A stretch of DNA of 64,000 nt from Candidatus Shapirobacteria bacterium. GTDB taxonomy: Bacteria; Patescibacteriota; Microgenomatia; UBA12405. The DNA lies in contig JALHFY010000002.1 of assembly GCA_022837635.1 (NCBI GenBank), forward strand, positions 69,055-133,054. Direction: 5' to 3'. The notes under the pieces were generated by a model, which was given only the letters and a program-made list of their open reading frames with translations, searched no databases and had not been told where the DNA came from. Positions 5,813-62,262 of the stretch are shown here, one piece after another. Numbering within the stretch: position 1 is the stretch's first letter; every line of letters starts with the position of its first letter. The translations under genes and the position numbers were made by a program.

Positions 5813-5908
5813 TGTGTGTAATTGTACCGTAAAATGTGGAAAAAAACAATGGTTATTCCCGGTACAAAAGAATATGGAACATAGACTCTAATTTTTTAAC
5901 TAATTGAA

Positions 5909-5970
5909 TATGGTTGTCGGGAAATTTTGGTGATGGATCCGGATGGGTATTTACTCAGATTTTCGGAAGG
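5909..5970. repeat. 62-bp direct repeat copy 2 (orphan glyoxalase 3' fragment); right boundary of island
   Basis: In frame this reads YGCREILVMDPDGYLLRFSEGLGGEEIK*, a gene remnant. It overlaps the last codons of the P-loop gene 5955-6437. Confidence 0.9.
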
Positions 5971-6437
5971 CTTGGGGGGTGAAGAGATAAAATAAATTTA
6001 TCTAATTCTTTAGTGTGCTTAAAAATCAGAATGCGGGCTTGAGGTGAATGGGTTTTAATTAGTCTCATAATCTTGGGACGACTGGTAAAGCGCCAGGTAA
6101 TTAACCACCACCAAAAATCAAACCTTTCTTTGTCTCTCTTAATAGCTCGACTAAGACAGCACAGGAGAGGGAAATCCAAAATGATAATGGTGTCAGCAGC
6201 TTTGAGTCTAACCTCAAGAGCATCGTATTTACCTAAGTCACCGTCGATAATCCATGCTTTATCAACAACTAGTTTTTTCTGAATTTTTTTCCATTGATTA
6301 ATAGGAGTAGGAATCAGGCCGGGTTGCCAAAAATATTTATCTAACTCCAGGTGAGGAATGTTTAGTATTTGGCTAAGTTTTTTGGCGAGAGTAGTTTTAC
6401 CGGATGCTCCAGGTCCGAGAATGATAATTTTTTTCAT
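5955..6437 (-). CDS. P-loop NTPase (adenylate-kinase/topology-modulation-like AAA family)
   Basis: IIILGPGASGKTTLAKKL Walker A; 160 aa. Confidence 0.6.
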   Translation of the reverse strand: MKKIIILGPGASGKTTLAKKLSQILNIPHLELDKYFWQPGLIPTPINQWKKIQKKLVVDKAWIIDGDLGKYDALEVRLKAADTIIILDFPLLCCLSRAIKRDKERFDFWWWLITWRFTSRPKIMRLIKTHSPQARILIFKHTKELDKFILSLHPPSLPKI

Positions 6438-18108: not shown

Positions 18109-18680
18109 TGGACAGAGAGGAAAAAATAAAAAAAGTAATTAAAAACCGACAGGAAGGAATAATAGTTTTGGAAAATATTGCTGATCCGCATAATGCTGGA
18201 GCGGTGTGGCGGACAGCGGAGGGATTGGGTTTTCAAAAAATATATTTAGTCTATTCACAGGAAAAAATGATTAATCCAAAACGAGTAGGCAAAGCGAGCT
18301 CTAGTAGTGCCAATAAATGGCTAAGTTTTAAAATTTTTAAAAGTATAAAAGATTGTTATAAAGAATTAAAAAAAGAGGATTTCAAAATTTTTGCGACAAC
18401 TCTCGATAAGGATTCAAAAAATCTTCGATCTTCAGACTTCAGTCTTCAGAAAATTGCTATAGTACTGGGAAATGAGCATCGGGGCTTATCGGCAGAAGCA
18501 ATAGCAGGGGCGGATGAAAAAATTTATATCCCAATGAAGGGAATGGTGCAGAGTTTTAATATATCGGTAGCTGCGGCAATAGTGATGTATGAGGTAATAA
18601 GGCAGAGAGATCAAAAAAACTACTCTTTGGGCATAGAAGAAAAGAAACAATTATTGAAAGAGTGGGTCCGCCTTCGTTGA
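18105..18680 (+). CDS. SpoU/TrmH-family RNA 2'-O-methyltransferase
   Basis: IVLENIADPHNAGAVWRTAEGLG...LGNEHRGLS. Confidence 0.8.
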   Translation: MMDREEKIKKVIKNRQEGIIVLENIADPHNAGAVWRTAEGLGFQKIYLVYSQEKMINPKRVGKASSSSANKWLSFKIFKSIKDCYKELKKEDFKIFATTLDKDSKNLRSSDFSLQKIAIVLGNEHRGLSAEAIAGADEKIYIPMKGMVQSFNISVAAAIVMYEVIRQRDQKNYSLGIEEKKQLLKEWVRLR

Positions 18681-18707
18681 CTCCGACGAGTCGAGGTACA
18701 ATAGGCT

Positions 18708-21111: not shown

Positions 21112-21669
21112 TTACTCGCGACAACAGTCAAGAATTTTGCCGATGATGTTACTGACTTTGCCTAGAAAATCGGATTTTTTGTAGGTGATGGGGGTATCAA
21201 AACCCTTCCCCATCCCTTCCCTTGACAGGGCAGGGAGATTTTTATTTTTTATTAAACCTAAATTAAGGCCCCAGAAGAGATTGTAGAGGTGGTAGGATTT
21301 CTCAAAAAATTTATGAGCCGATTTATGATCACCTTTGGTTTGGGCCTTGGTGCCAACTTCAAAAAGTCGCATGGAAGCGGCCAAAAGATGTTTACTGGTA
21401 CACCAAAGCTCCCCTTCTGGATTCTTGACAATCAATTTCATTAATTCTTTACGCATTTCTCGAGCTTCGTTGAGGATATTGAAATATTTGATTTTGCCGG
21501 TTTTGTTGCCGGTAAAAAACAAATGCTCTTCGATACTGATGAGATTCATAATAGCCAAAGACAAATCTTCATCGGAACTGAGATCTAATTTATGACCGGC
21601 TTCGGCAGTTTTAACCTTATCCATAAAATTTTTAAGATTAAGATTGGAGAGATGTTGATTTTTTTTCAT
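21112..21669 (-). CDS. Hypothetical protein
   Basis: ORF only. Confidence 0.3.
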   Translation of the reverse strand: MKKNQHLSNLNLKNFMDKVKTAEAGHKLDLSSDEDLSLAIMNLISIEEHLFFTGNKTGKIKYFNILNEAREMRKELMKLIVKNPEGELWCTSKHLLAASMRLFEVGTKAQTKGDHKSAHKFFEKSYHLYNLFWGLNLGLIKNKNLPALSREGMGKGFDTPITYKKSDFLGKVSNIIGKILDCCRE

Positions 21670-22544: not shown

Positions 22545-23384
22545 TTATTGTTGGCATTTTGGACAGTAAAAGGTACCGCGGCCACCAAGTTTTTGATATT
22601 TAATTTTAGTTCTACATTTAAGACAAGGCTCCCCTTTTCTTTCGTAAACCCGGAAAAAAAACTGGTTTTTGCCCTTGGTGCCATCGGGGCGGAGATATTT
22701 ATTGTCCCGAGCAGTGGAACCGCCGGAAAGAACTGACTGGCGCATAATAGAAAGTAGAGAATTATGGAGCTTAAGGGATTTAGATTTTGAAACTCGGTTG
22801 GCGGGAGTAGTGGGGAGTATATGAGCCAAAAAAAGAGCGTCATTGGCATAAATATTGCCAATGCCAGCAAAATAATGCTGGTCTAAGAGAACTATTTTGA
22901 CGGGCCGGCGGGATTTTTGAAGTTGGGAGTGGAAGTATTCCAGAGTAAAAAGAGGATCAAAAATATCGTGACCCAAATTAGATTGGAAGAGTTTTAATGC
23001 TTTAGAACTAAAGAGACGGACCCAGCCGAATTTACGCTGGTCATTGAAATAAAGCCGAGAGCGGTCACTAAAAGTAAAAATTAGGCGGGTGGATTTTACC
23101 GGCATGGGGAGAGAAGCTTCTTTGGTGGGGTGACCGAGAGTAAAGCCCTCGTAAATAAGCTGACCGGTCATTTTAAGATGAACCAAGAGAACGAGACGGT
23201 TGGATAAATGAACGGAAAGTTGCTTGCCAATGCGGGAAAATTTGACAATTTTTTGACCTTCGACAAAACGGAGGTTGCCAACAAAAGATTTGGGGCTAAG
23301 AATTTTGATTTTACTAATGGTTTTACCAAGAAGATGATCTTCTAAAAAGAGTCTAACTACTTCAACTTCGGGAAGCTCAGGCAT
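22545..23384 (-). CDS. mutM: Formamidopyrimidine-DNA glycosylase (Fpg/Nei family)
   Basis: N-terminal MPELPEVE (catalytic Pro2); C-terminal zinc finger CLKC...CPKCQ. Start set at the internal Met. Confidence 0.85.
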   Translation of the reverse strand: MPELPEVEVVRLFLEDHLLGKTISKIKILSPKSFVGNLRFVEGQKIVKFSRIGKQLSVHLSNRLVLLVHLKMTGQLIYEGFTLGHPTKEASLPMPVKSTRLIFTFSDRSRLYFNDQRKFGWVRLFSSKALKLFQSNLGHDIFDPLFTLEYFHSQLQKSRRPVKIVLLDQHYFAGIGNIYANDALFLAHILPTTPANRVSKSKSLKLHNSLLSIMRQSVLSGGSTARDNKYLRPDGTKGKNQFFFRVYERKGEPCLKCRTKIKYQKLGGRGTFYCPKCQQ

Positions 23385-23437
23385 GAATGAATTATAAAGA
23401 AACCAGAAACCAGAAACTAGAAACAAGAATTAAGATG

Positions 23438-24358
23438 TTAAGTAAGGTCGTCGATGTCGATTGCAGAAATGGTTTTGTTATCAGCCAGATGTCGCAGACC
23501 AATATTCATGTCGGTAAAACTATCTTTGATGTTGGAAAAAGCATTTAGATAAGTTTGGGTTTGGGTAACATAACCCATAACTAAAACCAAATCAGAAATA
23601 TCTTTTTCACCCTGAAGAACGGCAAAAACTAGATAGACCAGGATAAAAAAGTAGAAAATGACAGAAGCACCCTGTAGGAAATTCCATTCCTTAAAAGACC
23701 AGTTGGTAATCCGTCGGAAATGACGATTGTAGGAAGTTTGCTCTAAGTCAAAGTCATTATCTGCCTGCATTTTGGCGTAATAAGCCTCAGTTTTAGAGTT
23801 TTGAATATCGCGCAGATGTGAATAGCGCTGGGTAGTGAAATAATCAATAAAGTAATAAATGAGAATATAGGCAAAATTGATAACAAAGGCAGGAAAATCA
23901 ATGACAAATAAAATTAAAGGAATGAAAATCAATGAGACTAAACTGTCAATACCGGGTTGTTTGATGAGGTTGAGAGTGGTGGCAGCAGCATCAGAGAAGT
24001 TGCGAACAGCTTGGATGGTAACTGAACGTTCAGTTTTGGTAGCAGGATGGTGATCTAAAAGAAAGAAATTGTGAATATCCAAACTGAGTTTACTGATGAG
24101 ATATTCCAATTTGGAAATAGACAAAAGACGAAGATAATTATCAACCAAGCGAGACAGGAGAATCAGAAATAAGGTGATTGAAACTAAAGAAAAAGAAGCT
24201 TTAATTTCCAACAATCTAATAATCCTAGAATAAAGGTAAATGGTAATTAGTGGAAAAATAGCGGAAATAAAGCGAACAAGTGCCCAAAAAGCGAGAGCGG
24301 AGCGGTCATGAACAATTTTAAGTAAAAACTTAAAAGCTTTACGAGTAGCAGAGTGCAT
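23438..24358 (-). CDS. ABC-exporter transmembrane domain protein without nucleotide-binding domain
   Basis: Six-TM ABC type-I exporter-like topology; ORF ends where an NBD would begin. Confidence 0.4.
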   Translation of the reverse strand: MHSATRKAFKFLLKIVHDRSALAFWALVRFISAIFPLITIYLYSRIIRLLEIKASFSLVSITLFLILLSRLVDNYLRLLSISKLEYLISKLSLDIHNFFLLDHHPATKTERSVTIQAVRNFSDAAATTLNLIKQPGIDSLVSLIFIPLILFVIDFPAFVINFAYILIYYFIDYFTTQRYSHLRDIQNSKTEAYYAKMQADNDFDLEQTSYNRHFRRITNWSFKEWNFLQGASVIFYFFILVYLVFAVLQGEKDISDLVLVMGYVTQTQTYLNAFSNIKDSFTDMNIGLRHLADNKTISAIDIDDLT

Positions 24359-24426
24359 GAATTCATTATAGATAAAGAAAACAGAAACTAGAAACTAGAG
24401 ACTAGAATTGAGTTAAAATAAAAGTT

Positions 24427-25413
24427 ATGGAAGAAAATATTTATGACTCTGTGGTCATCGGTTCGGGACCGGGAGGGCTGACCGCCGCGATTTATAATGC
24501 CCGAGCTGATTTGAAAACAGTGGTGATAGCCGGCGATATCCCTGGTGGACAATTGACAATTACTACAGTAGTCGACAACTGGCCAGGTTTTCCTAAAGGA
24601 ACCGGTGGAGTGAAGTTGATGATGGACATGCAGGAGCAAGTAAAAAATTTGGGAGTGGAAATTTGGATAGATACAGTCAAGACAATAACCAAAAAACCTG
24701 CCTCATCGGCAGGCAATTTCCAAATAGAGTTGGAGTCGGGTAAAACAATTCAAACTAGATCGGTGATTATAGCCACTGGAGCCAGAGCCAGGTGGTTAGG
24801 ATTGAAAAATGAAAAAGAGTTAATTGGTCGAGGAATTTCGGGGTGTGCCACCTGTGACGGAATGTTTTTTAAGGACAAGGTGGTAGCGGTGGTCGGTGGA
24901 GGGAATGTGGCCTGTGAGGATGCGGCATTTTTATCTAAAATTGCTAAAAAAGTTTATCTGATTCACCGTCGAGATCAGTTGAGGGCGATTTCAGCTGAGG
25001 CTAAAAAAGTTTTAGATAACGAAAAAATAGAAAAAGTTTGGAATAGTGAGGTGGTGGAAATAAATTCCAATAACCAAAAAACAAGTGTTCCAAACAATGT
25101 CCAATTACACAATATAAGGATTAAAAATAATCAAACAGGAAAAGAAGAAATTTTGCCGGTAGATGGGTTGTTTGTAGCCATAGGTCGAGTGCCGTCAACT
25201 GATTTTATCAAAGAGATGGTTAATCTAAACGAAAATGGTTATATAATCACCGGTCAGGATACAATGTATAGCAGTATGACCTCAACACCGGGAATATTTG
25301 CGGCTGGGGATTGTATGGATGAATGGTATCGACAAGCAATTGTGGCGGCTGGAGCTGGAGCTAAAGCTTCAATTGATTGTCACAGATGGTTATCGACTGA
25401 AACGAGTCACTAA
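24427..25413 (+). CDS. trxB: Thioredoxin reductase
   Basis: GSGPGG FAD site; redox-active CATC; GGGN NADPH site. Confidence 0.9.
   Translation: MEENIYDSVVIGSGPGGLTAAIYNARADLKTVVIAGDIPGGQLTITTVVDNWPGFPKGTGGVKLMMDMQEQVKNLGVEIWIDTVKTITKKPASSAGNFQIELESGKTIQTRSVIIATGARARWLGLKNEKELIGRGISGCATCDGMFFKDKVVAVVGGGNVACEDAAFLSKIAKKVYLIHRRDQLRAISAEAKKVLDNEKIEKVWNSEVVEINSNNQKTSVPNNVQLHNIRIKNNQTGKEEILPVDGLFVAIGRVPSTDFIKEMVNLNENGYIITGQDTMYSSMTSTPGIFAAGDCMDEWYRQAIVAAGAGAKASIDCHRWLSTETSH
24689..24728. repeat. Intragenic hairpin repeat inside trxB (same family as 41044-41080)
   Basis: aaccaaaaaacctgcctcatcggcaggcaatttccaaata versus aaccaaaaaacctgcctcgccggcaggcagg at 41044; in frame (TKKPASSAGNFQ). Confidence 0.7.
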
Positions 25414-26577
25414 ATTGCGGATTTTTTTGAGAAAAACTGGTCGGGAAAATTTGAGAGCGTTTCGATAACAATCTTGTGGATTCAGGTGGCTTTGATTAAG
25501 TTTTTGGATGGCGGTAGCACAAGAATCAGGGGTTAGTTTATCAAAAAGAAAGCCAGTTTTGCCGTGGATAACAGTTTCTCTAATACCGCCACTATTGTAG
25601 CCAATAACAGGACAACCTAGAGCCTGGGCTTCAACAGAGACCATGCCAAAATCTTCATTATCGGAACAGAAAAGATAGGCCTTGGCAGTCTTAAAAAGAG
25701 TTTCTTTTTGGGATTGAGTAACTTCACCTAAAAATTCAGTCTTGGGGCCAGCCAATTTTCTTAATTCTGCTTCAAATCCGGCAAAATCACGGCCAAAAAT
25801 TTTAAGAGGTAAATTAAGTTTTTTGCAGGCTAAAATGGCGATATCATAGCGTTTGGCCCTGGCTAAACGACCACCGGTGAGATAAAAGCACTCATCTGGT
25901 TTTTGGCGGTCCTCGCTACCTTCGGGCTGTCCTCCGACTGCGTCGGAGTCACGCGTTCGCTGCGGTCCTGAAAAACCAGATTTCGTTAACTTTAATGGAA
26001 CTTCGATGGGGGGGTTGATGACGATAGCAGAACGGCGGTAGAACTTTTTAATACGAGCAGCGGTAGTTTGAGAATTGGCGATATATTGGTCGACGTTTTG
26101 GGAAAACTTAAAATCGGCTAGACGTAAAAAATGGTTGGCAATGTTGGCCAAAAATTTTAAGAGAGGATATTTTTGAAAATTACGAGCGGTAGGAAGACCA
26201 TAAAGATAGCGAGGTGGAGTATGGCAATAACAAATAAGCTTGGCAGATTTTTTGTTGACAGCATTGGGGAAATAAGCTCCAGTGGCAGAACTAATAATCA
26301 AATCATAACCAGAAAAATCAAAGAACTTAAAAGCCAAAGGGGATAAAAGACGGAGAGGGCTGATAATTTTGTGAGCAAAGGGAATATATTTAAAAAAAGA
26401 TTGATGAACCCGATGGTCCCATTTTTTTTGCAAACGACTTCGGTGAGGACCGAAATAAGATGGGGCGTAAAAGGAAGTGAAAATATCAGCTTTAGGGTAA
26501 AGATCGGTTAAAGTTTCAAAAACCGCTTCAGCGCCACCGTATTCTTTGAGATAGTCATGAACCAAGGCAATACGCAT
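25390..26577 (-). CDS. Family-1 (GT4-like) glycosyltransferase carrying an in-frame GC-rich insertion
   Basis: MRIALVHDY...YGGAE start; GT-B C-terminal half. The 25897-25975 GC-rich palindrome encodes RTRDSDAVGGQPEGSEDRQ. Confidence 0.7.
   Translation of the reverse strand: MRIALVHDYLKEYGGAEAVFETLTDLYPKADIFTSFYAPSYFGPHRSRLQKKWDHRVHQSFFKYIPFAHKIISPLRLLSPLAFKFFDFSGYDLIISSATGAYFPNAVNKKSAKLICYCHTPPRYLYGLPTARNFQKYPLLKFLANIANHFLRLADFKFSQNVDQYIANSQTTAARIKKFYRRSAIVINPPIEVPLKLTKSGFSGPQRTRDSDAVGGQPEGSEDRQKPDECFYLTGGRLARAKRYDIAILACKKLNLPLKIFGRDFAGFEAELRKLAGPKTEFLGEVTQSQKETLFKTAKAYLFCSDNEDFGMVSVEAQALGCPVIGYNSGGIRETVIHGKTGFLFDKLTPDSCATAIQKLNQSHLNPQDCYRNALKFSRPVFLKKIRNLVTRFSR
25897..25975. repeat. GC-rich palindromic element (family with 46739-46806), intragenic
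   Basis: ggtttttggcgg...ccgactgcgtcgg...gaaaaaccagatttcg; compare ...gaaaaacaacatttcg at 46806. Confidence 0.65.
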
Positions 26578-26594
26578 GGCATATAATAGCAAAA

Positions 26595-27500: not shown

Positions 27501-27564
27501 AGGATATTATAAAAGATACCAGAAACAAGATACTAGAAATTAGAAATTAAGGTAGAATTTAATA

Positions 27565-28500
27565 ATGGAACAGCATCCGATTCCACAGCAAATCAGTTCC
27601 TACGAGTTCAAATTGGTAGGAGACATGACGCTGAAACAATTTGGAAAGGCGGCCGGGGGAATAATTTTGGCGGTGCTAATAAACACGACAGTTTTGCCTT
27701 TTTTTATAAAATGGCCACTAATGTTGATATCAGCAGTGGGAGGATTAGCACTGGCGTTTTTACCTTATCAAGATAGACCACTAGAAACTTGGATTGGAGC
27801 TTTTTTGAAGTCAATATATTCACCAACCGTATTTATTTATAAAAAGAAAAAGCCGGAAAACTGGTTGGATATTGACTTGACAAAAAAAATTGAAAATAAA
27901 GAGGAGGAAAAAATTGAAGTACCACAGAAGGAAGAAAGAAAAGTAAAAGAATTTATCGAGTCACTGCCGTCAGTAGAACGAGAGAGACGAGTTAAAGAGG
28001 ATTTGAAAACAGAAGAAGTGGAAAAAATTGCGGAAAAAATGGAGGAGAAGGTAAAAGAGAAACTAGAAACGAGAAAACAGAAACCAGAAATAAAACAAGA
28101 GGAGGAAACGGGGGACAAGACAAAGGGTATGGGAGTGGAGAGTCGACCCGTGGGACCTAAATTAGACTTAAAAACTCAAAAATTAGAGGCGACAGGAGAT
28201 GCGGTTTTTGGCAGTATTCCCATGCCTAGTATTCCAGAAACGCCTAATGTCTTGGTGGGAATGGTTTTGAGCACTGATAATAAAATTGTGGAAGGGGCAA
28301 TTGTGGATTTGCAAGATAAAAGTGGTAATTCAGCTAGGGTCTTAAAAACCAATCAGTTAGGTCAATTCAAAACGCTAACACCATTAAGTCCAGGAAAATA
28401 CTTAGTAGTCACGGAAAAAGAGGGCTTAAAGTTTGATCGAGTCGAAATAGAATTAGATGGAAAAATCGTGCAACCCTTAAAAATTATCGCCAAAGCTTAA
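27565..28500 (+). CDS. Membrane protein with KE-rich linker (T4SS-cluster associated)
   Basis: Two TM helices, then a charged low-complexity segment containing a heptad minisatellite. Confidence 0.35.
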   Translation: MEQHPIPQQISSYEFKLVGDMTLKQFGKAAGGIILAVLINTTVLPFFIKWPLMLISAVGGLALAFLPYQDRPLETWIGAFLKSIYSPTVFIYKKKKPENWLDIDLTKKIENKEEEKIEVPQKEERKVKEFIESLPSVERERRVKEDLKTEEVEKIAEKMEEKVKEKLETRKQKPEIKQEEETGDKTKGMGVESRPVGPKLDLKTQKLEATGDAVFGSIPMPSIPETPNVLVGMVLSTDNKIVEGAIVDLQDKSGNSARVLKTNQLGQFKTLTPLSPGKYLVVTEKEGLKFDRVEIELDGKIVQPLKIIAKA

Positions 28501-29227: not shown

Positions 29228-31579
29228 ATGGGAATATTAGATCAATTTAAGAAGAAACAAGAGGAGGCGAAACCCGTCTCCGCCCCGCCGGAGCGAGATT
29301 TTGGTGTGGCGAAAGAATTTGTGGAAGGACTGGTGTCTATAAAAGATTTGATAGCCCCTTCAGCGATTGAAGTTGATTTTAATCATATTCGAATTGATAA
29401 CAAGTATTACCGAACTTGTTTTGTAGCTGGATATCCGCGAACAGTGGGAATGAACTGGTTATCAACTTTGATTAATTTTGATGCCTCAATGAGAGTGGCG
29501 ATGTATATCTATCCGACCGACGGAAAAGCAGTGTTAGATGACCTGAGAAGGAAAATTACCGAAATGGAGGCGGAAATTAGCACTGATGTACAAAGAGGAC
29601 GACTAATTAATCCTTCAACACAAGCAAAGCTGGAGGATGCTTTGAATTTACAATCAGATTTAGTTAAGGGTGAGGAGAGGTTTTTTCAACTTGGTTTATA
29701 TATGACTATTTCAACCGATACTAAAGAAGAATTAGACAGAGTGACTAAAAATTTGGAGTCAGCGCTGGGAGCGTTGATGATAATTGCTAAAAATACCACT
29801 TTGCAAATGAACGAGGGTTTTGCCACTACCCTACCTTTGTGCTCAGATAGTATAGAAGTCACCAGAAATATGGACACCACATCATTGGCGTCAACCTTTC
29901 CTTTTGTTTCTTCTGATTTATCTGATGACAAAGGAATAATGTATGGAATTAATGAGCATAACGGTTCCTTGGTTATCTTCGATAGATTTTCAATGCAAAA
30001 CTACAACTCGGTAGTATTTGCTTCGGCGGGGGCGGGTAAATCTTACATGATCAAGTTGGAGGCGATGAGGTCGTTGATGATGGGAATAGATATTATTGTG
30101 ATTGATCCGGAAAACGAATACAGAAGTCTAGCTGATTCAGTAGGAGGTCAATATATTGCCTTTGGATATGGTGAAGAGTCGAAGATTAACCCTTTTGACT
30201 TATCACTGGTAGTAGAGGAAGGAGAAAATGCTCTTAATGACAAGGTGTTGACGCTTCATAAGATGTTTAAGATTATGATTGGTGAAATGGACCCGATTGA
30301 AGAGTCGATTTTGGATAAGGCGGTCATGGAAGCTTATCGAGCCAAAGGAATTACCCCGGATTCTGAAACTCAGAATAAAGAAGCACCTTTGATTGAAGAT
30401 TTATACAAAGCTTTGATTGGAATGGAAGAGGAAAAAGCAAAGAGCTTGGCGGCAAGATTGGAAAAATATATTAAAGGTTCTTTTGCGGGAATTTTTAACC
30501 AGAAAACAACAGTTAATTTAACTAACCAGTTTGTAGTCTTTGGAATTAGAAATTTGGAGGAAAGTTTAAGGCCAGTAGCGATGCATATTATTTTGGACTA
30601 TATTTGGACGGTAGTTAAAAAAGAATTAAAAAAGCGGATTTTGGTGGTGGATGAGGCTTGGTATTTAATGCAATATGAAGATTCGGCGGCTTTCTTGAGA
30701 GGAATTGTAAAAAGAGGTCGAAAGTATTATCTGGGAGTAACGACAATTACCCAGGATGTAGATGACTTTCTACAAACAGCTTATGGTAAAGAAATTGTGA
30801 CCAATAGCGCCATTCAAATATTGCTTAAACAACATAGTGCCGCCATAGAATTGATTGGCAAAACTTTTTATTTGTCTGAAGGAGAAAAACAACTACTATT
30901 GTCAGCTGATAAAGGTGAGGGAATATTCTTTGCGGGACAAAACCATGTAGCAATACAGGTAATCGCCTCAAAAGAAGAACATGATTTAATAACTTCAAAT
31001 CCTGAGGATTTATTGAGAAAGAAAATTGCCCAAAAACAGGCGGATTTGGTAAAAGAAAAGTTGCCAATAAACGAAGAAGAGGTAAATCCACCCCCAACCC
31101 CTCCTTTGGAGAAAGGAGGGGAGAGGCCTGACTCCACTAGCTCCGACGTGGCAAGGCCCGCCTCCGTTCAACAAAATAAAAACTTCGGCGTGGCGAAGCC
31201 TGAAGAACAGAAGCCTTTCGTGGTGGAGGTTGAGGAGACCCCAGAACAGAAATTAAAAAAGAGAATTGAGGAAATGGAGGCACAGGAAAAAACAGAGGAG
31301 GCGAAACCCGTCTCCGCCCCGCCGCTGCGGGACTCCGATGTGGCAAGGCCCGCCTCCGAAATGCCGAAATCTCAAGAATTGTTTAAGGCTGGGACATCAA
31401 CAGCTAAAAAACCGGTGTTTTTAATCAACCAACAAGAAGAGGTAAAAATTCCTCAACCACCACAGTTGGTAAAGAAACCCGTCTCCGCCCCGCCGGAGCG
31501 GGGCTCCGATGTGGCAAGGCCTGAAGATAAGAATAAATTAACCTACGAAGAATTGTTCGGAAATGATAAACAAGTTTAG
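29228..31579 (+). CDS. VirB4/TraC/TrbE-like type IV secretion ATPase with repeat-built C-terminal tail
   Basis: Walker A FASAGAGKSY; Walker B ILVVDEAWYLM; 783 aa; residues ~620-783 consist of GC-rich repeat units. Confidence 0.7.
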   Translation: MGILDQFKKKQEEAKPVSAPPERDFGVAKEFVEGLVSIKDLIAPSAIEVDFNHIRIDNKYYRTCFVAGYPRTVGMNWLSTLINFDASMRVAMYIYPTDGKAVLDDLRRKITEMEAEISTDVQRGRLINPSTQAKLEDALNLQSDLVKGEERFFQLGLYMTISTDTKEELDRVTKNLESALGALMIIAKNTTLQMNEGFATTLPLCSDSIEVTRNMDTTSLASTFPFVSSDLSDDKGIMYGINEHNGSLVIFDRFSMQNYNSVVFASAGAGKSYMIKLEAMRSLMMGIDIIVIDPENEYRSLADSVGGQYIAFGYGEESKINPFDLSLVVEEGENALNDKVLTLHKMFKIMIGEMDPIEESILDKAVMEAYRAKGITPDSETQNKEAPLIEDLYKALIGMEEEKAKSLAARLEKYIKGSFAGIFNQKTTVNLTNQFVVFGIRNLEESLRPVAMHIILDYIWTVVKKELKKRILVVDEAWYLMQYEDSAAFLRGIVKRGRKYYLGVTTITQDVDDFLQTAYGKEIVTNSAIQILLKQHSAAIELIGKTFYLSEGEKQLLLSADKGEGIFFAGQNHVAIQVIASKEEHDLITSNPEDLLRKKIAQKQADLVKEKLPINEEEVNPPPTPPLEKGGERPDSTSSDVARPASVQQNKNFGVAKPEEQKPFVVEVEETPEQKLKKRIEEMEAQEKTEEAKPVSAPPLRDSDVARPASEMPKSQELFKAGTSTAKKPVFLINQQEEVKIPQPPQLVKKPVSAPPERGSDVARPEDKNKLTYEELFGNDKQV
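29276..29323. repeat. GC-rich hairpin repeat family B copy (intragenic)
   Basis: gcgaaacccgtctccgccccgccggagcg... (GCCCCGC nnnn GCGGGGC palindrome). Confidence 0.7.
31085..31126. repeat. GC-rich hairpin repeat family A copy (intragenic)
   Basis: aatccacccccaacccctcctttggagaaaggaggggagagg. Confidence 0.75.
31301..31350. repeat. Repeat family B copy (intragenic)
   Basis: gcgaaacccgtctccgccccgccgctgcgggactccgatgtggcaaggcccgcctccg. Confidence 0.75.
31474..31522. repeat. Repeat family B copy (intragenic)
   Basis: gaaacccgtctccgccccgccggagcggggctccgatgtggcaaggcc. Confidence 0.75.
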
Positions 31580-35779: not shown

Positions 35780-36138
35780 AAAAGAAAAATTTTTTTGAAT
35801 ACCCTTTAATAATTTTTTTAATAGTTTTAGGAATACTAATGGCAATAGTGAAATGGCAATATAGAAATGTGGTTTGGGAAGATGTTAGACCGACAGTAAT
35901 AGTGACTCCTAGCCCAACCATTGCCCCGCAAATCAACGAGGAATACCCTTTGTGGGAGAAACTACCATATCGAGGTGAGGGTTATGTTGTAGAGCGTTAT
36001 ACGGAGCCTGGGACTCTAATGGTGAGAATAAACAAAAAAACAGATACAGAGATTATTACTCAAGCAATTTATGAATGGATGAGAGAGTATCAAGTAGCAA
36101 CAGAAAGTCAGAAATTGATTTTTGAAAAATCAGACTAA
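35776..36138 (+). CDS. N-terminally anchored hypothetical protein
   Basis: Signal anchor; 4-bp overlap with the upstream gene. Confidence 0.35.
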   Translation: MKKKNFFEYPLIIFLIVLGILMAIVKWQYRNVVWEDVRPTVIVTPSPTIAPQINEEYPLWEKLPYRGEGYVVERYTEPGTLMVRINKKTDTEIITQAIYEWMREYQVATESQKLIFEKSD

Positions 36139-37253
36139 TCTTGAATTCGGACAGGCATGATAATATGGGTCAGATCAGGATCGGTTTGGTCACGAAAAAT
36201 TCCAGGAGAGAGAGCTTCGTTTAATTCGATAATAATTTCTTCACCCTGACAAATAGTTAAAAAATCAGAAACAAAACGGTAATTAAAGGCAATTTCTAGA
36301 GTTTCACCTTCAACTTTAGCTTCCAAAGAGACTCGGTTTTGGCCAATTTGAGGAGCATTAGCGGAGAGTTCAAGAGAATCTTTTTTAACAGTAAATTTAA
36401 CTACATTAGCTGATTCTCGAGCAAATACAGAACTTTGACGAATAGCTTGGGCAAATTCTTCTTTGTTAAGATAAATTTTAGTAACTGACTCTTGAGGAAT
36501 AATTCTTTCAAAATCAGGGAACTCACCATCAATTAAACGAGAAACAATTTCCGAATTTTCAAGAACAAAAACTACTTGATGCGAATCTTTAGTTAGACCA
36601 ATTTTAATCTTGCCATTACCTTTGGCTAATTTAACCACTTCTGAAAGAGATCGGGCGGGAATAAGTAAATTAACAGCTTCACTATCTAGGTTTAAGGGGG
36701 TAGTTAATTTAATGGTTTTCAAAGAAAGTCTAAAACCGTCAGTGGCCACTAAACGGAGTTCATTGGTAGTAAAAGTACATAAAATAGCAGTAAGGATTGG
36801 ACGAGAATCGTCGGTAGCAGCAGCAAAGGCGACTTCATTAATAGCTTGAGTTAATAGAGAAAGATCGATTTCTAAGGCAGTTTTTTCATCAAGACTGGGA
36901 ATGACAGGAAAATCAGTGGCCGGTAGACAAGCAAAATTAGACTCGGTTTTGTCTGAAGTTAAAGTTAAAAGAGTTTTGTCTTTTAAGGTAAAGTCTAATT
37001 TACCAGCAGGTAAATAGGAAACAAATTCAGTAATTTCTTTGGCTGGTAGACAAAAAGAACCTTCAGTTTCGATTTTGGCACCTAACCAATAATTGATACC
37101 TAATTCTAAATTAGTAGCAGAAAGTTTAAGTCGACCTTGGTCAGTGGTAAATAAAATATGACTAAGAACAGGTAATTGAATTTTAGAAGCTACGAAACGA
37201 GAGGTATCAGACAGAGCTTGAGAAAGATTTTCACTTAAAAGGGATAACTTCAT
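36135..37253 (-). CDS. dnaN: DNA polymerase III beta sliding clamp
   Basis: 372 aa with three-domain beta-clamp pattern; adjacent to dnaA. Confidence 0.85.
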   Translation of the reverse strand: MKLSLLSENLSQALSDTSRFVASKIQLPVLSHILFTTDQGRLKLSATNLELGINYWLGAKIETEGSFCLPAKEITEFVSYLPAGKLDFTLKDKTLLTLTSDKTESNFACLPATDFPVIPSLDEKTALEIDLSLLTQAINEVAFAAATDDSRPILTAILCTFTTNELRLVATDGFRLSLKTIKLTTPLNLDSEAVNLLIPARSLSEVVKLAKGNGKIKIGLTKDSHQVVFVLENSEIVSRLIDGEFPDFERIIPQESVTKIYLNKEEFAQAIRQSSVFARESANVVKFTVKKDSLELSANAPQIGQNRVSLEAKVEGETLEIAFNYRFVSDFLTICQGEEIIIELNEALSPGIFRDQTDPDLTHIIMPVRIQD

Positions 37254-37460
37254 TGACCTATATCTTAACAGATTTTAGGTATAGAAAACAGTAGTTTTAG
37301 TATTAGGTAAAGTGGAATAGTGGAATAAAGGAGAAGATTAGTAGATAAATAGATAAATAGTGAGTAAAAGAAATTGTGGATTGATAGATATAGGCGGGAG
37401 GTTATTGTAAAGATAGTTTTTATGACCTATAAAAAGTAGTTGTTTTTTGGGTTTGTTTCG

Positions 37461-37524
37461 GTGGAAAAGTGAGAGGAAAAATGTGGAAAAGAAAGTGGAA
37501 AAGTGAGAGGAAAAATGTGGAAAA
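37461..37524. promoter_or_regulatory. DnaA-box-like cluster between dnaA and dnaN (candidate oriC part)
   Basis: Two 31-bp direct repeats gtggaaaagtgagaggaaaaatgtggaaaag; TGTGGAAAA (1 mismatch to TGTGGATAA) at 37482 and 37516; ttgtggatt at 37377. Confidence 0.45.
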
Positions 37525-37526
37525 AA

Positions 37527-38888
37527 TTAGAGTGAATTTTTGATTTGGTTGATAACTTGAGAAAGTTGTGGAAAAGTTTGAAGGTCGGCAGTAATTTTAT
37601 CTCGAGCATGCATAATACTAGTATGATCTCGACCACCTAAGAGATTACCAACTTCTTTTAAGGGAAGGTTGAGTTCGGTTAAAAGCAGGTAAGCGGTGAT
37701 ATGGCGAGCGTTAGCAATGTCTTTTTTACGAGAAGGACCGGTTAATTCTCCAGTTTTTAGATTAAAAAATTTAGCACAAACAGAAATGAGGTGGCGAGCA
37801 TTAACTTTGGAAGAAGGAGAAGAAAAGGCGGCACTAGTGGGACTACCTGGGTTACCTAAAAAATGACTAACAAAATCAACATCGACTAGTTTATGGTTTT
37901 GAGCTAAGCTGATAACAGAAATGTCTTGAATTTTGCCTTCAATATCACGAATATTGGAATTGAGATTATCGGCTAAAAATTGAACTGCTTCAAAAGTGAG
38001 GTCTATCCCCCGCTCTTGAGCCTTTTGTTGAATAATAGCCGAGCGCATTTCCAAATCAGGGGGTTGAATATCAACAGTTAAACCACCCATAAAACGAGAG
38101 ACTAGACGGTCTTCAAGATCTTTAATATCACTGGGTTTGCGATCAGAGGTAAGAATGATTTGTTTGCCAGCTAAATGCAAAGCGTTAAAAGTATGGAAAA
38201 ATTCTTCTTGAATATATTCTTTACCAGCTAAGAATTGGACATCATCGACTAAGATACAATCAAGTTGACGGTATTTATTTTTAAATTGAGCGATAGATTT
38301 ACTTTTAAGGGAGGTAATTAATTCATTACCAAAGGTTTCAGCAGGAAAATACTTAATTTTGAATTCAGGATTATTTTTTAAGAGTTCGTGGCCGACGGCT
38401 TGCATGAGATGGGTTTTGCCAACACCAACTCCACCCCAAAGAAAGAAAGGGTTATAGGAAAGACCGGGATTTTTAAGAATACCTTGGGCAGCAGCATAGG
38501 CAAAATTATTACTGTTACCAACAATAAGATTGTCAAAAGTATAACGAGGGTGAAGACCAGCATTACTAAAAGAAATAGTAGAAACTTTAGGTTGATAGGA
38601 AAAAAGAGGAGTAGAGGCAGTAGAAGGAGTATCTGGGTTGATGATATCTTGAACCACAAAATGAAGAGAGTTACTGCTTTTAGTTTGATTATCAAGGGCG
38701 TTTTTGAAAAGCTGATAATAACGTTTTTGATTAAGATCGCAAAGATAGGAGCTGGTACAGGCGATGGTGGCTTGATGATCAACTAAAGAAATTAACTGGG
38801 TTTTGACGACAAAGGTTTGATAAACAGCGGGAGCCAAGACAATCCGAAGTTCTTCTTGAGTGTTTTTCCAAAGTTGAGCTAAATCCAT
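37527..38888 (-). CDS. dnaA: Chromosomal replication initiator DnaA
   Basis: AAA+ Walker A GGVGVGKTHLMQA; C-terminal domain IV; 453 aa. Confidence 0.95.
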   Translation of the reverse strand: MDLAQLWKNTQEELRIVLAPAVYQTFVVKTQLISLVDHQATIACTSSYLCDLNQKRYYQLFKNALDNQTKSSNSLHFVVQDIINPDTPSTASTPLFSYQPKVSTISFSNAGLHPRYTFDNLIVGNSNNFAYAAAQGILKNPGLSYNPFFLWGGVGVGKTHLMQAVGHELLKNNPEFKIKYFPAETFGNELITSLKSKSIAQFKNKYRQLDCILVDDVQFLAGKEYIQEEFFHTFNALHLAGKQIILTSDRKPSDIKDLEDRLVSRFMGGLTVDIQPPDLEMRSAIIQQKAQERGIDLTFEAVQFLADNLNSNIRDIEGKIQDISVISLAQNHKLVDVDFVSHFLGNPGSPTSAAFSSPSSKVNARHLISVCAKFFNLKTGELTGPSRKKDIANARHITAYLLLTELNLPLKEVGNLLGGRDHTSIMHARDKITADLQTFPQLSQVINQIKNSL

Positions 38889-40575: not shown

Positions 40576-41052
40576 ATGGATAATAAAGCTAGAAACGAAA
40601 AAATCTTGAATTTGACCTGCGAAATGTTGGGGAAAATTAATTATGAAGTGGAAAATGCGTTTGTAGAAGATATTCCTGGAGAGGCAGAAGAAAACCAAGT
40701 TTTGGTGAGTGTAACTGTCCCCCAACCCGGTGGATTAATTGGGTTTCGAGGTCGAAACATGTCGGCACTACAACTAGTGTTGTCGTTGGCGGTTAAGAAA
40801 AAGTTGGGTGAGTGGGTAAGAGTGGTTTTAGATATAAATAATTATCGAGAAGAGCAAAAAGTAAGATTAGAAAAAATGTCTAGAGATTTGGCACAAAAAG
40901 TGTTGGAAACCGGCAAAGAGGTACATATGGCCAACATGAGTTCTTACGAGAGAAGAATTTGTCATATGGTGTTGACGGAAATTGAGGGAATAACTTCGGA
41001 TTCTGAAGGTGAGGGTGAAGAAAGACATATTGTGATAAAAAAATTACAATAA
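40576..41052 (+). CDS. jag: Jag/KhpB-like RNA-binding protein (KH + R3H)
   Basis: C-terminal R3H (YERRICHMVL); gene order after yidC. Confidence 0.7.
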   Translation: MDNKARNEKILNLTCEMLGKINYEVENAFVEDIPGEAEENQVLVSVTVPQPGGLIGFRGRNMSALQLVLSLAVKKKLGEWVRVVLDINNYREEQKVRLEKMSRDLAQKVLETGKEVHMANMSSYERRICHMVLTEIEGITSDSEGEGEERHIVIKKLQ

Positions 41053-41196
41053 CCAAAAAACCTGCCTCGCCGGCAGGCAGGCAAATCTCAAACTCTTTGT
41101 AATTTGAATAATTGGACATTGTTTGTTTCTTGTAGATTTGGTTATTGGAGCTTGTTTGTATCTTGTGATTTTGGTTATTGGAATTTTAAGTGTGGT
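41044..41196. repeat. Composite intergenic repeat (hairpin head plus two ~37-bp tandem units), related to 62143-62262
   Basis: Shares caaatctcaaactct..gtaatttg and ttgtttgtatcttgtgattttggttattggaattt with 62183-62262. Confidence 0.8.
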
Positions 41197-41206
41197 AGCA
41201 TAGGGC

Positions 41207-42400
41207 GTGGAGAGATTTTGGACATTTTTATGGTTGTTGTTGGTGCCCACACAGTTGGGAAAACATTTTTGGTTAACCGAGAGTTATGTAGCAGGGATTA
41301 AGGTTGACTATTTGTCGATTATTTTATATTTGACAGATATGGTGTGGTTGGGGTGGGTGTTTAGCTTAAAAAAAGAAAGGAAGAAAAATAAGATTGGGAA
41401 AATTTTGGCGATATTATTGGTTATTTTGGTAAACGTGTGGATGGCTGAAGCGAGATGGGTGGCAGTGTATAGGTGGTTGAGAATAGGGCAATGGGTAGTT
41501 ACAGTCTGGTTGGTGGCTGAAAATAAAGAGAAAATTAAGGAAGTTTTACTAAAAGTGGTGCCGATATGGATATTGATAGAGGTGTTTTTGGCAGCATCTC
41601 AGGTGGCTAAAGGTGGCAGTTTAGAGGGTATTTGGTACTGGCTAGGCGAACGACGTTTTAGTTTTGGGAGTGTGGGAATTGCGCAAATGCGCTGGGGTAA
41701 TGAGGCGGCAATACGAGCTTACGGAACTTTTTCACACCCTAATTCATTGGCGGGATTTTTGTTATTGGTGTGGGTGTGGTGGAAAGAAGAAACCCGCCTA
41801 CCGGCGGGTAAACGAGAAACAAGAATATGGTATTGGGTGGTGAATTGGTCGGCAATATTGGGAATAATTTTAACGGGGAGTAGAACAGTGTGGGTGTTGG
41901 CATTATTGACATGGATATTAGAAACAAGAAACAAGAAACTAGAAACAAGAAGAATTTTGGGCAGAATATTAGTAGTATTAGGAGTGGGGGCAATGGTGTT
42001 GGGATTGCTGGGACGGGAATATGAGTTAAAGAGTTTTTTGGGTGGCTGGGATAGTCAAAGTTGGCAAAAAAGAATGAGTTTGAACATGTCAGCTTTAGAG
42101 ATGATGGCCGACTCCCCTATTTTCGGAGTGGGAGCAGGAAATTTTACTAAGAGATTGGGAGAATACCAGAAAGGAAGTTTTTACTGGTTGCAGCCAGTTC
42201 ATAATATTTTGTTGTTGGCTTTAAGTGAGACAGGAATAGTGGGAGCAATGATGTTTTGGAAGTTTTTTAAGAGGTACTGGAAAAAGATTGACTGGTGGAT
42301 GGGGATGATAATAATGGTAACAGGGTTGGTGGATCATTATTGGCTAACACTACCACAAAATACTTGGCTTCTGGCCATAATTTTAGGGATTTTGGGGTAG
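41207..42400 (+). CDS. O-antigen ligase/polymerase-like membrane protein
   Basis: Polytopic membrane protein with loop motif GSRTVWV; contains an in-frame heptad minisatellite at 41918-41955. Confidence 0.45.
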   Translation: MERFWTFLWLLLVPTQLGKHFWLTESYVAGIKVDYLSIILYLTDMVWLGWVFSLKKERKKNKIGKILAILLVILVNVWMAEARWVAVYRWLRIGQWVVTVWLVAENKEKIKEVLLKVVPIWILIEVFLAASQVAKGGSLEGIWYWLGERRFSFGSVGIAQMRWGNEAAIRAYGTFSHPNSLAGFLLLVWVWWKEETRLPAGKRETRIWYWVVNWSAILGIILTGSRTVWVLALLTWILETRNKKLETRRILGRILVVLGVGAMVLGLLGREYELKSFLGGWDSQSWQKRMSLNMSALEMMADSPIFGVGAGNFTKRLGEYQKGSFYWLQPVHNILLLALSETGIVGAMMFWKFFKRYWKKIDWWMGMIIMVTGLVDHYWLTLPQNTWLLAIILGILG

Positions 42401-46732: not shown

Positions 46733-46738
46733 TCAGAC

Positions 46739-46806
46739 TCATGTTGTTTTTGCCGTGCTCACGCGCTGGCGGCTTCGCCTGGCATGATTGCGCGCGGAAA
46801 AACAAC
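46739..46806. repeat. GC-rich imperfect palindrome (MITE-like) downstream of the DUF4012 gene
   Basis: atgttgtttttgccg...cgcggaaaaacaacat terminal inverted repeats; 11-bp perfect arms. Confidence 0.7.
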
Positions 46807-46838
46807 ATTTCGTCTGATTATTGTGTAGAGTTGTGTAG

Positions 46839-49071: not shown

Positions 49072-49178
49072 AATCACCCCTAACCCCTCTTTGAAGAAAG
49101 AGGGGAATTTTGTGTATACTATGTAATAATATTTACATTAATTTTCCCCTCCTTTGGTCAAAGGAGGGGATGGAGGGG
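49071..49178. repeat. Two family-A-related hairpin repeats in the ftsH 3' intergenic
   Basis: cccctctttgaagaaagagggg (49085-49106) and cccctcctttggtcaaaggagggg (49147-49170). Confidence 0.75.
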
Positions 49179-49191
49179 TAGATTTTTAAGA

Positions 49192-51237: not shown

Positions 51238-51250
51238 GGATACATTATAG

Positions 51251-51327
51251 AGAAACTGGATACAAGAAACTAGAAACGAGAAAACAGAAACTAGATATAA
51301 GAAACAAAAAATTAGAAATAAGAATCA
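51251..51327. repeat. 7-bp minisatellite (AGAAACW)x11 in divergent promoter region
   Basis: agaaact ggataca agaaact agaaacg agaaaac agaaact agatata agaaaca aaaaatt agaaata agaatca. Confidence 0.85.
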
Positions 51328-51356
51328 AAAAGAGGGATTTTTGATATAATTGAGGC

Positions 51357-56609: not shown

Positions 56610-56998
56610 GGATTCCCGGGGATTTGGAATATAGTAACGTTAACACCGGTAAATTTTTGAATGAAATTAAGAATTAGCCAGGAAGCAATGACACCAACTA
56701 GACCGATGATGGCCATAGTGAGGGTGGAAGAAGCGGAGGCTAGTTTTTTTTCATCACCACCACTAGTGAGGTATTTGAAACCACCGCTAATGAACATAAA
56801 GAAAAAAGCCAGACCGGCAATAACTACTATTATTTGGAGAATGTTGGCAAAAAGACATTCAAAACCTTGGATGGTAGCGACATCACCTTGGGTAACGCAG
56901 CGACCTGTCCAAGTGCCATCGGAAGCAACTTGAGCTAGAGCTGGATGCACAAATAAGAAACAAGAAACTAGAAACCAGAAACAAGAGAGTTTTTTCAT
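56606..56998 (-). CDS. VirB2/TrbC-like pilin paralogue 1
   Basis: Signal peptide; TM1; loop SGGDEKKLASASST; TM2 IIGLVGVIASWLIL. Start set at MKKLSCF. Confidence 0.55.
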   Translation of the reverse strand: MKKLSCFWFLVSCFLFVHPALAQVASDGTWTGRCVTQGDVATIQGFECLFANILQIIVVIAGLAFFFMFISGGFKYLTSGGDEKKLASASSTLTMAIIGLVGVIASWLILNFIQKFTGVNVTIFQIPGNP

Positions 56999-57021
56999 AA
57001 CTACATTATAGTATAAAGTCC

Positions 57022-57049
57022 AAAAAAAACCCCCTGCAGAGGCAGGGGG
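57022..57049 (-). terminator. Rho-independent terminator after pilin paralogue 2
   Basis: On the minus strand: CCCCCTGC-cucu-GCAGGGGG followed by U8. Confidence 0.8.
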
Positions 57050-57068
57050 TGTGAACTCTACCAAGAAT

Positions 57069-62141: not shown

Positions 62142-62142
62142 C

Positions 62143-62262
62143 CAATAACCAAAAAACAATTTCCAAACAAATTACAAATAACAAATCTCAAACTCTTGGT
62201 AATTTGGAATTTGAAAAATTGGAAATTGTTTGTATCTTGTGATTTTGGTTATTGGAATTTAT
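62143..62262. repeat. Intergenic repeat related to 41044-41196
   Basis: caaatctcaaactcttggtaatttgg ... ttgtttgtatcttgtgattttggttattggaattt. Confidence 0.8.

Follow-up and report, generated by a model that had tools for sequence, protein, structure and literature searches.

Short palindromic repeats in frame within intact genes of a Candidatus Shapirobacteria genome, and hairpin replacement at two protein loops

Several families of short GC-rich hairpin-forming repeats lie between genes and, in frame, inside intact protein-coding genes of a 64,000-nt stretch (hereafter the window) of the AT-rich genome of an uncultured, ultra-small Candidatus Shapirobacteria bacterium (GenBank assembly GCA_022837635.1, contig JALHFY010000002.1, positions 69,055 to 133,054). 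What defines these elements is their DNA; from one relative to the next they are found, missing or exchanged for other hairpins, and the genes that host them are unbroken; particular protein loops act as recurrent acceptor sites for them. We regard them, with a probability of roughly three in four, as selfish or neutral repeats that are akin to the repetitive extragenic palindromes (REPs), that behave in their relation to genes like the Rickettsia palindromic elements (RPEs), and that are kept only where frame and position tolerate them. A first-pass annotation of the window had described such intragenic insertions as rare, a claim that goes too far, as RPEs and intragenic REPs are already documented (PMC3733652). 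The kind of element is known, and the most notable parts of the present results are the replacement of one hairpin by another at two loops, those of a glycosyltransferase and of thioredoxin reductase, and the occurrence across phyla of a hairpin with a one-sided tail.

The window has a GC content of ~30-45%, in a genome of ~38% GC, and its GC skew is positive along the whole 64 kb. Its genes include, according to Pfam annotation, dnaA, dnaN, trxB, fpg, ftsH, a DUF4012 gene and a cluster resembling a type IV secretion system (T4SS), which comprises PrgI-like, TraC-like and VirB4/TraG-like ATPase genes, an M23 peptidase and pilins. The principal hosts of the repeats are the genes for a GT4-type glycosyltransferase (GT1; 25390-26592, minus strand), whose homologues are labelled as Candidatus Shapirobacteria, a lineage of the Patescibacteria/candidate phyla radiation (CPR), and for TrxB, the VirB4/TraG-like ATPase and the DUF4012 protein. 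All four open reading frames (ORFs) run open from start to stop, and the frame was unbroken at every locus examined, in the window and in orthologues, which bears out the earlier proposal of insertion without disruption. The three hairpin families named there, A, B and C, exist in the places assigned to them or within a few bases of these. When folding was computed as single-stranded DNA and expressed as z against shuffled controls, A and C folded beyond the shuffles. The repeats are also backed by the direct-repeat families D3, D4, D6 and D11 of a repeat search of the window. Units of families A and B span 24-48 nt and those of family C 75-94 nt; A and C are found intergenic as well as intragenic.

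The window was compared with six syntenic relatives (L001-L006), contigs with GT1 proteins at 95%, 88% and 88% identity and ~22 kb aligned, of which the well-aligned part (window 18.6-37.3 kb) was used for a census of insertions and deletions. This yielded 22 indel blocks of at least 12 nt, about half of them with a GC fraction of at least 0.53. Three of the segments discussed below, a 24-nt piece of trxB, a 42-nt family B unit and a family A core, vary in presence among these close relatives. A wider set of 80 loci with GT1 orthologues came from a scan of metagenome contigs. Comparison of orthologues, which the first-pass annotation had proposed as a check, supports insertion by empty as against replaced linkers, by indels among relatives and by changes of frame.

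In the GT1 gene the element is an 88-nt family C palindrome (25894-25981, minus strand), recognized from its sequence within the intact ORF, with AT-rich outer arms ATCTGGTTTTT/AAAAACCAGAT around a GC-rich core. It matches the family covariance model over 25891-25984 with 77.5 bits and folds as DNA with z = -3.4. The interval first assigned to it, 25897-25975, does fall inside the palindrome, but the termini quoted with it belong to the intergenic copy at 46741-46808. The element encodes K199-E229 of the protein, with the peptide ...KSGFSGPQRTRDSDAVGGQPEGSEDRQKPDE..., and lies between two Pfam domains (residues 13-190 and 227-375). In an AlphaFold model built on 35 orthologues, with a mean predicted confidence (pLDDT) of 83, residues 200-227 are the sole long stretch with pLDDT below 50, and this coincides with the element-encoded segment.

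Across the orthologues the GT1 linker, delimited by the conserved anchors INPP[IV] and [FY]YLTGGRL (four loci escaped the anchor pattern; their ORFs are intact too), falls into two classes. Ten loci have an empty linker of 13-25 residues, with GC 0.09-0.36 and a predicted folding energy of ~0. Occupied linkers have GC 0.36-0.62, energies of -12 to -41 kcal/mol and at least five types of hairpin. Among these are family C, of which there are two subtypes, a double mini-hairpin that reads PALSREGARRAEG, then APLSRGAVRRTEGF and several A-like hairpins, besides others. At exactly one position three different hairpins are found: L001/L002 share family C with the window, L003/L004 have TCCCCTTTCTTCAAAGGGGGTGG together with another mini-hairpin, and L005/L006 have TCTCCGCCCTGTCAAGGGAGGGGCTGG, so that the occupant differs even between relatives whose proteins are 88% identical. 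In a rough GT1 tree made by neighbour joining the occupants are patchily distributed, which implies several gains, losses or replacements. The same peptide segments in distant lineages had been named as the finding that would mark them as ancestral rather than inserted. As conservation of a peptide this was not found. A qualification concerns the age of the GT1 copy: a homologous family C segment occupies the GT1 site in orthologues of 65-72% identity, with many residues outside the insert invariant, and is thus an old insertion in the ancestor of a Shapirobacteria subclade, not a recent one. Other GT1 orthologues carry short inserts elsewhere (RTCPSGRR, VRSSRRAKDGLP, GLPAGASAKAG and an N-terminal SPLSKGDARRAEGF; alignment columns ~83-97, 239-250 and 370-380; proteins P0011, P0046, P0096, P0009, P0015, P0049, P0062, P0075 and P0086), which look like translations of hairpins of like kinds.

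The second acceptor is a β-turn of TrxB. The window gene (plus strand) has there, at 24682-24728, the 5' end of an element termed D (ACAATAACCAAAAAAC...AATTTCCAAA) together with a nested mini-hairpin, CCTGCC-TCATC-GGCAGG at 24698-24714, which is in frame as had been reported; the segment encodes TITKKPASSAGNFQ. A 34-nt stretch around the hairpin is identical at 32 of 34 positions to the intergenic sequence 41046-41079 (repeat D13). All six close relatives share this hairpin, and its status as an insert becomes visible against distant orthologues and solved structures, the segment adding 4-5 residues at a turn relative to solved thioredoxin reductases. In distant orthologues the empty forms of this turn are AT-rich (GC 0.17-0.23); occupied forms hold, besides the mini-hairpin of the window, family A read in a third frame (KSSPNPSFDKGGA, L127) and, in L129, L130 and L143, A-like elements whose nested mini-hairpins are of three different kinds. 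A second trxB segment is confined to the window: a 24-nt in-frame insert at 25071-25094 (plus strand), missing in six of six relatives, which copies an element D terminus and matches 41037-41061 and 62133-62157 (D15). It recreates the terminus TTTTGGTTATTGGAATTT by way of a TTGGAA microhomology already present in the flank, and from its sequence it looks like templated copying. Both trxB segments appear as alignment gaps at turns relative to solved thioredoxin reductases, which bears on the question, raised in the first-pass annotation, of whether such inserts fall in surface loops. Element D itself is an AT-rich palindromic and intergenic sequence with two copies (41037-41190 and 62133-62260; termini CCAATAACCAAAA/TTTTGGTTATTGG), and pieces of its terminus occur twice within trxB. 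Nested in the first copy and missing from the second is the mini-hairpin CCTGCCTCGCCGGCAGGCAGG (41059-41083; repeats D7, D13, D15 and I4).

Family B lies mainly in the gene of the VirB4/TraG-like ATPase. Its unit, GAAACCCGYCTCCGCCCCGCCGnnGCGGGRCTCCGAYGTGGCAAGGCC, has the architecture CGTC-TCC-GCCCCGC-loop-GCGGGGC-TCC-GA[CT]G, with a 7-bp stem and a 4-nt loop; the ATPase gene has 4-5 such units and the DUF4012 gene has one, and all five of the five copies counted in the window are intragenic. On the plus strand of the ATPase gene we find the unit AKPVSAPPERDFGVAK near the N-terminus (29269-29315), truncated relative to relatives, among which its length varies; a partial unit in the tail (31141-31166), consisting of a 3' half and the start of the next unit (D11); AKPVSAPPLRDSDVARPAS (31303-31358), also in the tail; and KKPVSAPPERGSDVARP (31474-31521), again in the tail, with the form CGTC-TCC-GCCCCGC-CGGA-GCGGGGC-TCC-GATG and a weaker fold (z = -1.4). 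The DUF4012 unit is KKPASAPPLRGYGVVK (44518-44564, plus strand). A 42-nt core (31317-31358) is missing from L001/L002 and present in L005/L006, and this indel, flanked by the direct repeats CGGAGNCGGG, looks slippage-like at the sequence level. Repeat units lie at residues ~13-29 and 620-765 of the ATPase, outside its P-loop domain (residues 255-564), and after the variable repeats the conserved C-terminal LTYEELFGND is in frame in all relatives. A family B unit also occurs in the PrgI-like gene of L001, L002 and L004-L006, which are all the relatives covering that region, and is missing from the window gene. The latter has in its place a heptamer repeat reading KLETRKQKPE. Tandem heptamers of this kind, AGAAAC(N), recur at 23393-23439, 24378-24424, 27509-27555, 28053-28099, 41908-41954, 51246-51334 and 56944-56990, near and mostly immediately upstream of start codons (e.g. 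trxB and the PrgI-like gene); they are in frame in two genes, the PrgI-like gene and that of the O-antigen ligase-like Wzy_C protein (LETRNKKLETRR), and could be a 5'-untranslated-region or promoter element or another repeat family. The Wzy_C gene also contains, at 41793-41816, an in-frame hairpin ACCCGCC-TACC-GGCGGGT between GAAAC motifs (EETRLPAGKRETR), which has GAAACCCGCCT in common with family B.

Family A, with the unit AATCCACCCCCAWCCCCTCCTTTGRAGAAAGGAGGGGAG, has a stem of 10-11 bp and a 4-nt loop. The ATPase tail holds one unit (AATCCACCCCCAACCCCTCCTTTGGAGAAAGGAGGGGAG, encoding NPPPTPPLEKGGE; 31085-31123, plus strand), again outside the P-loop domain, the core of which is missing from L001, L002, L005 and L006, with a related unit in L004. 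The DUF4012 gene holds three on the plus strand: NPPPSPPLKKGGE at 44597-44635 (z = -4.2) and copies at 44660-44698 and 44852-44890, each identical to the first at 39 of 39 positions. These units and the family B unit, at residues ~245-370, lie upstream of the DUF4012 domain (residues 566-701). The composition of both genes, one A unit with several B units in the ATPase gene and one B with three A units in the DUF4012 gene, is that given by the first-pass annotation, and the intergenic copies listed there are a family C palindrome after the DUF4012 gene and a family A pair. This pair (49071-49185; z = -6.0) is inverted and lies between the FtsH stop codon and the next gene, with a degenerate forward hairpin (49071-49107), an AT-rich spacer of 37 nt and a reverse hairpin (49145-49185). 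The window thus has six family A copies in 64 kb, four of the six intragenic; copies at other CPR loci are mostly in short ORFs or intergenic. A family A-like hairpin termed E (CCCTGCCCTGTCAAGGGAAGGGATGGGGAAGGG, encoding LPALSREGMGKG; 21210-21243, minus strand) lies in a 186-residue ORF and is confined to the window; relatives have a different segment of 19-22 nt at this site. In L128, L143-L145, L148 and L190 an element of this type sits in the GT1 linker.

One might suppose that the repeats are peptide modules, either short linear motifs or linkers of low complexity (e.g. NPPPSPPLKKGGE or KPVSAPPERGSDVARP), selected at the protein level and shuffled between tails of envelope and secretion-system proteins, their hairpins being incidental. 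All nine intragenic copies of families A and B in the window, four of A and five of B, have indeed one orientation and one frame each, and lie in tails, those of two proteins related to the envelope or to secretion; the four A copies all encode NPPP[ST]PPL[KE]KGGE. The rest of the evidence makes this explanation very improbable. Family B reads KPVSAPPERGSDVARP in the ATPase and DUF4012 genes but RNPPSSRSSGATAWQD, in another frame, in the relatives' PrgI-like gene. Family A lies within long ORFs of AT-rich CPR loci in at least three frames and both orientations, with readings such as N.P..PPL.KGGE, KSTPNPSFDERRG, SPLLSSKEGIKGW or FPSFLQRRGLRGRF in different ORFs, and one copy stands mid-way in an 866-residue ORF, after CNLGSINLARFV. 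The three DUF4012 copies of family A show not one synonymous difference. As the same DNA occurs in several frames and orientations, and A and C also between genes, selection on a particular peptide is excluded as the unifying feature.

Pairing is kept in family C. Its intergenic copy (46733-46817; z = -4.4) directly follows the DUF4012 stop codon, with arms ATGTTGTTTTT/AAAAACAACAT (46741-46808) and outer arms TCAGAC/GTCTGA; it matches the covariance model with 65.6 bits, and its core is like those of the GT1-linker copies of L129/L130. The differences between it and the GT1 copy compensate each other in both arms. In the family as a whole the core is conserved and the AT-rich outer arms vary at every locus with complementarity kept: 14 of 21 pairs show compensatory changes, G-T pairs are few, and 88% of cells are paired as against 65% in shuffles, none of 500 of which was as good. 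Two copies within one metagenome-assembled genome (MAG) share an identical 52-nt core between unrelated outer arms; hence the arms are either pre-existing local palindromes or made on insertion. In a search for an empty counterpart of the intergenic site, contigs encoding the downstream 133-residue protein gave only the same strain with identical sequence. Rfam covariance models gave only tRNAs at gathering score in the window, and sub-threshold matches at both family C copies were taken as noise.

Such compensation would also be expected if the hairpins were selected functional nucleic-acid structures, stabilizing or terminating mRNAs between genes and causing translational pauses that aid co-translational folding within them. 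The occurrence of different hairpins at the GT1 domain boundary and the TrxB turn in many lineages could be cited in favour of this, as could the first hairpin of the intergenic family A pair, which resembles an intrinsic terminator on the plus strand just past the FtsH stop codon. We nevertheless consider this explanation unlikely. Short AT-rich linkers for which no fold is predicted serve many orthologues well, and the sites include terminal tails, where a pause is of no obvious use. The pairing is nearly all Watson-Crick, with few G-T pairs, and the two strands fold equally well, as suits a palindrome in DNA more than a structured RNA. No intragenic copy was flagged as terminator-like on the sense strand, and family C was rejected as a terminator, as on both strands a T-run precedes and an A-run follows its GC stem, the reverse of a terminator.

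An artefact of assembly or binning, by which the palindromes would be assembler-made or the contigs chimeric, is hardly credible. Five independent short-read contigs (L206, L208, L209, L211 and L212) do end inside the intergenic family C copy, at ~46748-46765, so hairpins evidently fragment assemblies; yet identical elements in identical contexts recur across independent assemblies from different projects and assemblers (JGI, ENA, Logan and NCBI), and the divergence between orthologous copies keeps pace with that of their host genes. An intein or intron was likewise rejected, the segments being too short, in frame and free of stop codons, and the CRISPR/TIGR arrays of the literature are not interspersed hairpins of like kind.

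For the origin of these elements we envisage several short palindromic repeat families of non-coding origin, dispersed across Candidatus Shapirobacteria genomes, which would arise or land both between and within genes. An intragenic copy would survive only if its length is divisible by three, if it brings no stop codon into the reading frame of its host and if it falls in a tolerant part of the protein, such as the GT1 interdomain linker, the TrxB β-turn, or the terminal or pre-membrane tails of the ATPase and the DUF4012 protein outside the mapped domains. Surviving copies would then be translated into short hydrophilic peptides of Pro, Gly, Ser and charged residues, the predicted peptides including GPQRTRDSDAVGGQPEGSEDR and NPPPSPPLKK. 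We infer from sequence that the elements are selfish or neutral rather than functional and that these peptides are really made. How the elements spread is the least certain part of the scheme. The mode that we would favour is copying by way of single-stranded intermediates that form hairpins, with template switching or gene conversion from one copy to another and slippage between tandem units. Alternatively, a transposase of the HUH/Y1 type, like the REP-associated tyrosine transposases (RAYTs), encoded elsewhere in the genome could mobilize the elements in trans.

Several observations weigh against such an origin. Pfam annotation of the larger ORFs in the 64-kb window shows no transposase or other mobility gene, so that mobility is read from the distribution of the elements only. 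Searches with nhmmer and the covariance model found only two family C copies beyond the orthologous ones in ~1.7 Mb of related loci, whereby family C was rejected as a high-copy repeat, and a copy number this low is unusual for a selfish repeat. The single frame and orientation of the A and B copies in the window would also fit peptide selection, or duplication within and between tails. Lastly, the repeated reoccupation of two loops, the GT1 linker and the TrxB turn, could reflect a benefit rather than mere tolerance.

The closest analogy in behaviour is provided by the RPEs of Rickettsia, reportedly described by Ogata et al. in 2000, a paper cited in PMC3733652 and PMC10969869. In both cases palindromic repeats lie between genes and in frame within intact, conserved genes of a small AT-rich genome, add short peptides at permissive positions, vary in presence among relatives and have no associated transposase. 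The differences are equally clear: the present elements measure 24-94 nt against ~100-150 bp for RPE-1, form GC-rich islands, belong to several unrelated families with nested mini-hairpins, and reside in a Patescibacteria (CPR) host. The relation, drawn from descriptions of the RPEs, would hence be one of analogy and not of family membership. Yeast mitochondrial GC clusters are short GC-rich mobile hairpins that occasionally lie in frame in VAR1. They too are GC-rich hairpins in an AT-rich genome; they differ in residing in an organelle rather than a bacterium, in their unrelated sequences and in their characteristic target sites, which were not seen here. The small dispersed repeats of cyanobacteria, said by Elhai et al. 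(2008) to be of ~20-30 nt, nested and present in coding regions, appear similar by description in being very small, nested in one another or in other elements, and found in coding regions, the lineage and sequences being different.

With the GTAG/CGTC REPs (PMC3733652) the correspondence is partial. Families A and B are repeated stem-loops in the range of 20-40 nt, as REPs are, and further likenesses may include a conserved motif left unpaired at one end, dimers in inverted (head-to-head) arrangement downstream of ORFs, and some intragenic units that encode 10-30 residues. The placement of elements inside longer, locus-associated palindromes, described for REPs by Di Nocera et al. 2013 (PMC3733652), recalls the family C cores. 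Family B, flanked by CGTC...GA[CT]G, resembles the CGTC-tagged REPs only loosely, as it has an all-GC 7-bp stem and 3-nt TCC spacers instead of 8-9-bp stems starting with A-T (PMC3733652). In family A the GT[AG]G motif lies within a longer G-rich tail, GGGGT[AG]GATTT, at a distance of 4-8 nt from the stem and on the side opposite to that in canonical GTAG REPs (PMC3733652). Most units in the window are intragenic, whereas REPs are predominantly extragenic (PMC3733652), and no Y1_Tnp domain that would indicate a RAYT association is found among the Pfam annotations of the larger window ORFs. The earlier label MITE (miniature inverted-repeat transposable element) fits poorly: no target-site duplication was seen at the sites compared and no parent insertion sequence in the window, and the two family C copies of one MAG combine the same 52-nt core with quite different outer arms. 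The elements fall outside the strict definitions of GTAG/CGTC REPs and of MITEs. For Patescibacteria/CPR, we found no description of intragenic palindromes, and nothing relevant on the motif sequences themselves, in the literature, of which our coverage was incomplete, so that this amounts to absence of evidence only.

Family A extends well beyond the Shapirobacteria. A scan of a genome collection with a 20-base stem-loop pattern found at least 118 loci in many phyla, with ~1 expected by chance. The tail GGGG..[TA][AG]GATT accompanies 54 of 127 hairpins across phyla and is one-sided in 53 of the 54; its bearers include GC-rich Thermoanaerobaculia loci and a Moraxella isolate. In family A and its relatives the stem varies between subfamilies by compensating changes, the tail being GGGGT[AG]GATTT (on the other strand AAATC[CT]ACCCC), and a variable second mini-hairpin (GCCCGAAGGGC, GTCCGAAGGAC, GTCCGCAGGAC or GGTCGAAGACC) is often nested between stem and tail. 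The nested hairpins have GAA or GCA triloops closed by C-G, a motif known from DNA mini-hairpins of unusual stability, e.g. d(GCGAAGC). A tail-based census in the loci of GT1 orthologues recovered few copies because the tail varies, and site-by-site comparison was used instead. Several MAGs labelled "uncultured Gammaproteobacteria" (L009, L013, L033, L056, L074 and L075) are AT-rich (GC 0.34-0.37) and carry family A with flanks nearly identical to those of Shapirobacteria MAGs (L033 vs L060); these labels may be wrong, which makes the cross-phylum spread of family A less certain.

Two tentative readings of this distribution may be considered. By the first, which we hold possible with rather less than even odds, family A would belong to a very widespread super-family, as yet without a name, of mini-hairpin elements that are asymmetric and common to many bacterial phyla, and that are moved by a single-strand DNA mechanism targeted to hairpins or palindromes. 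Such elements would consist of the C-rich tail AAATC[CT]ACCCC, a stem-loop with compensating changes in its stem and, optionally, a nested mini-hairpin of variable sequence. If so, the coding sequence of Patescibacteria would be routinely colonized, and hairpins swapped at the GT-B interdomain linker and at the TrxB β-turn would steadily supply ultra-small genomes with new stretches of peptide. By the second, family A would be the recognition sequence of a conserved multi-phylum DNA-processing system, such as a RAYT/IS200-type transposase, DNA uptake or recombination, and its intragenic copies would be by-products. The excess of loci over chance, the recurrence of a constant tail beside a changing stem, and the REP-style inverted dimer could all be explained in this manner. 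We think it doubtful, given that the window lacks a Y1 transposase, that the GT[AG]G motif is displaced relative to canonical GTAG REPs (PMC3733652), that uptake signals are usually species-specific and denser, and that the phylum labels of some MAGs may be in error. Exact patterns of families A and B had no matches in 2.9 million viral contigs, which also counts against such a system and led us to reject carriage by phages.

These elements matter in several respects. Genomes of Patescibacteria/CPR are small and thought to be streamlined, and several families of tiny palindromes turning over in essential-looking genes offer them a route to new protein segments, with some loops acting as repeated acceptor sites. 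For genome analysis, palindromes of this kind break short-read assemblies, give rise to small ORFs that are spurious (MTRSGQPEGSEHCK... is one), make orthologues seem more variable in length, and can lead astray both alignment and annotation by homology. Should the cross-phylum hairpin-plus-tail prove to be one family that has its own mechanism, the REP/RAYT picture would gain a new class.

Further features of the window may be recorded. Where the SpoU methylase gene meets that of peptidase M3, the window alone has a GC-rich segment of 34 nt (18664-18697; GC 0.65); in the relatives the two genes overlap. A GC-rich stretch in fpg (22669-22727) was not counted among the elements, having no repeat or indel support, and may encode the conserved C-terminal part of Fpg. 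In an ORF for a T4SS pilin (56606-57100, minus strand), a perfect 9-bp hairpin, CCCCCTGCAGAGGCAGGGGG (57028-57054), encodes PPASAGG in the N-terminal part; this may represent a further intragenic mini-element, or the true start codon may lie downstream of it. A 68-nt direct repeat of 94% identity (D10; 612-679 and 5906-5973) may sit in paralogous genes. Finally, dnaN and dnaA lie on the minus strand (36135-38888), and between them, at 37461-37524, are repeats of 10-12 nt containing the DnaA-box-like TGTGGAAAA; at this putative origin the GC skew shows no change of sign.

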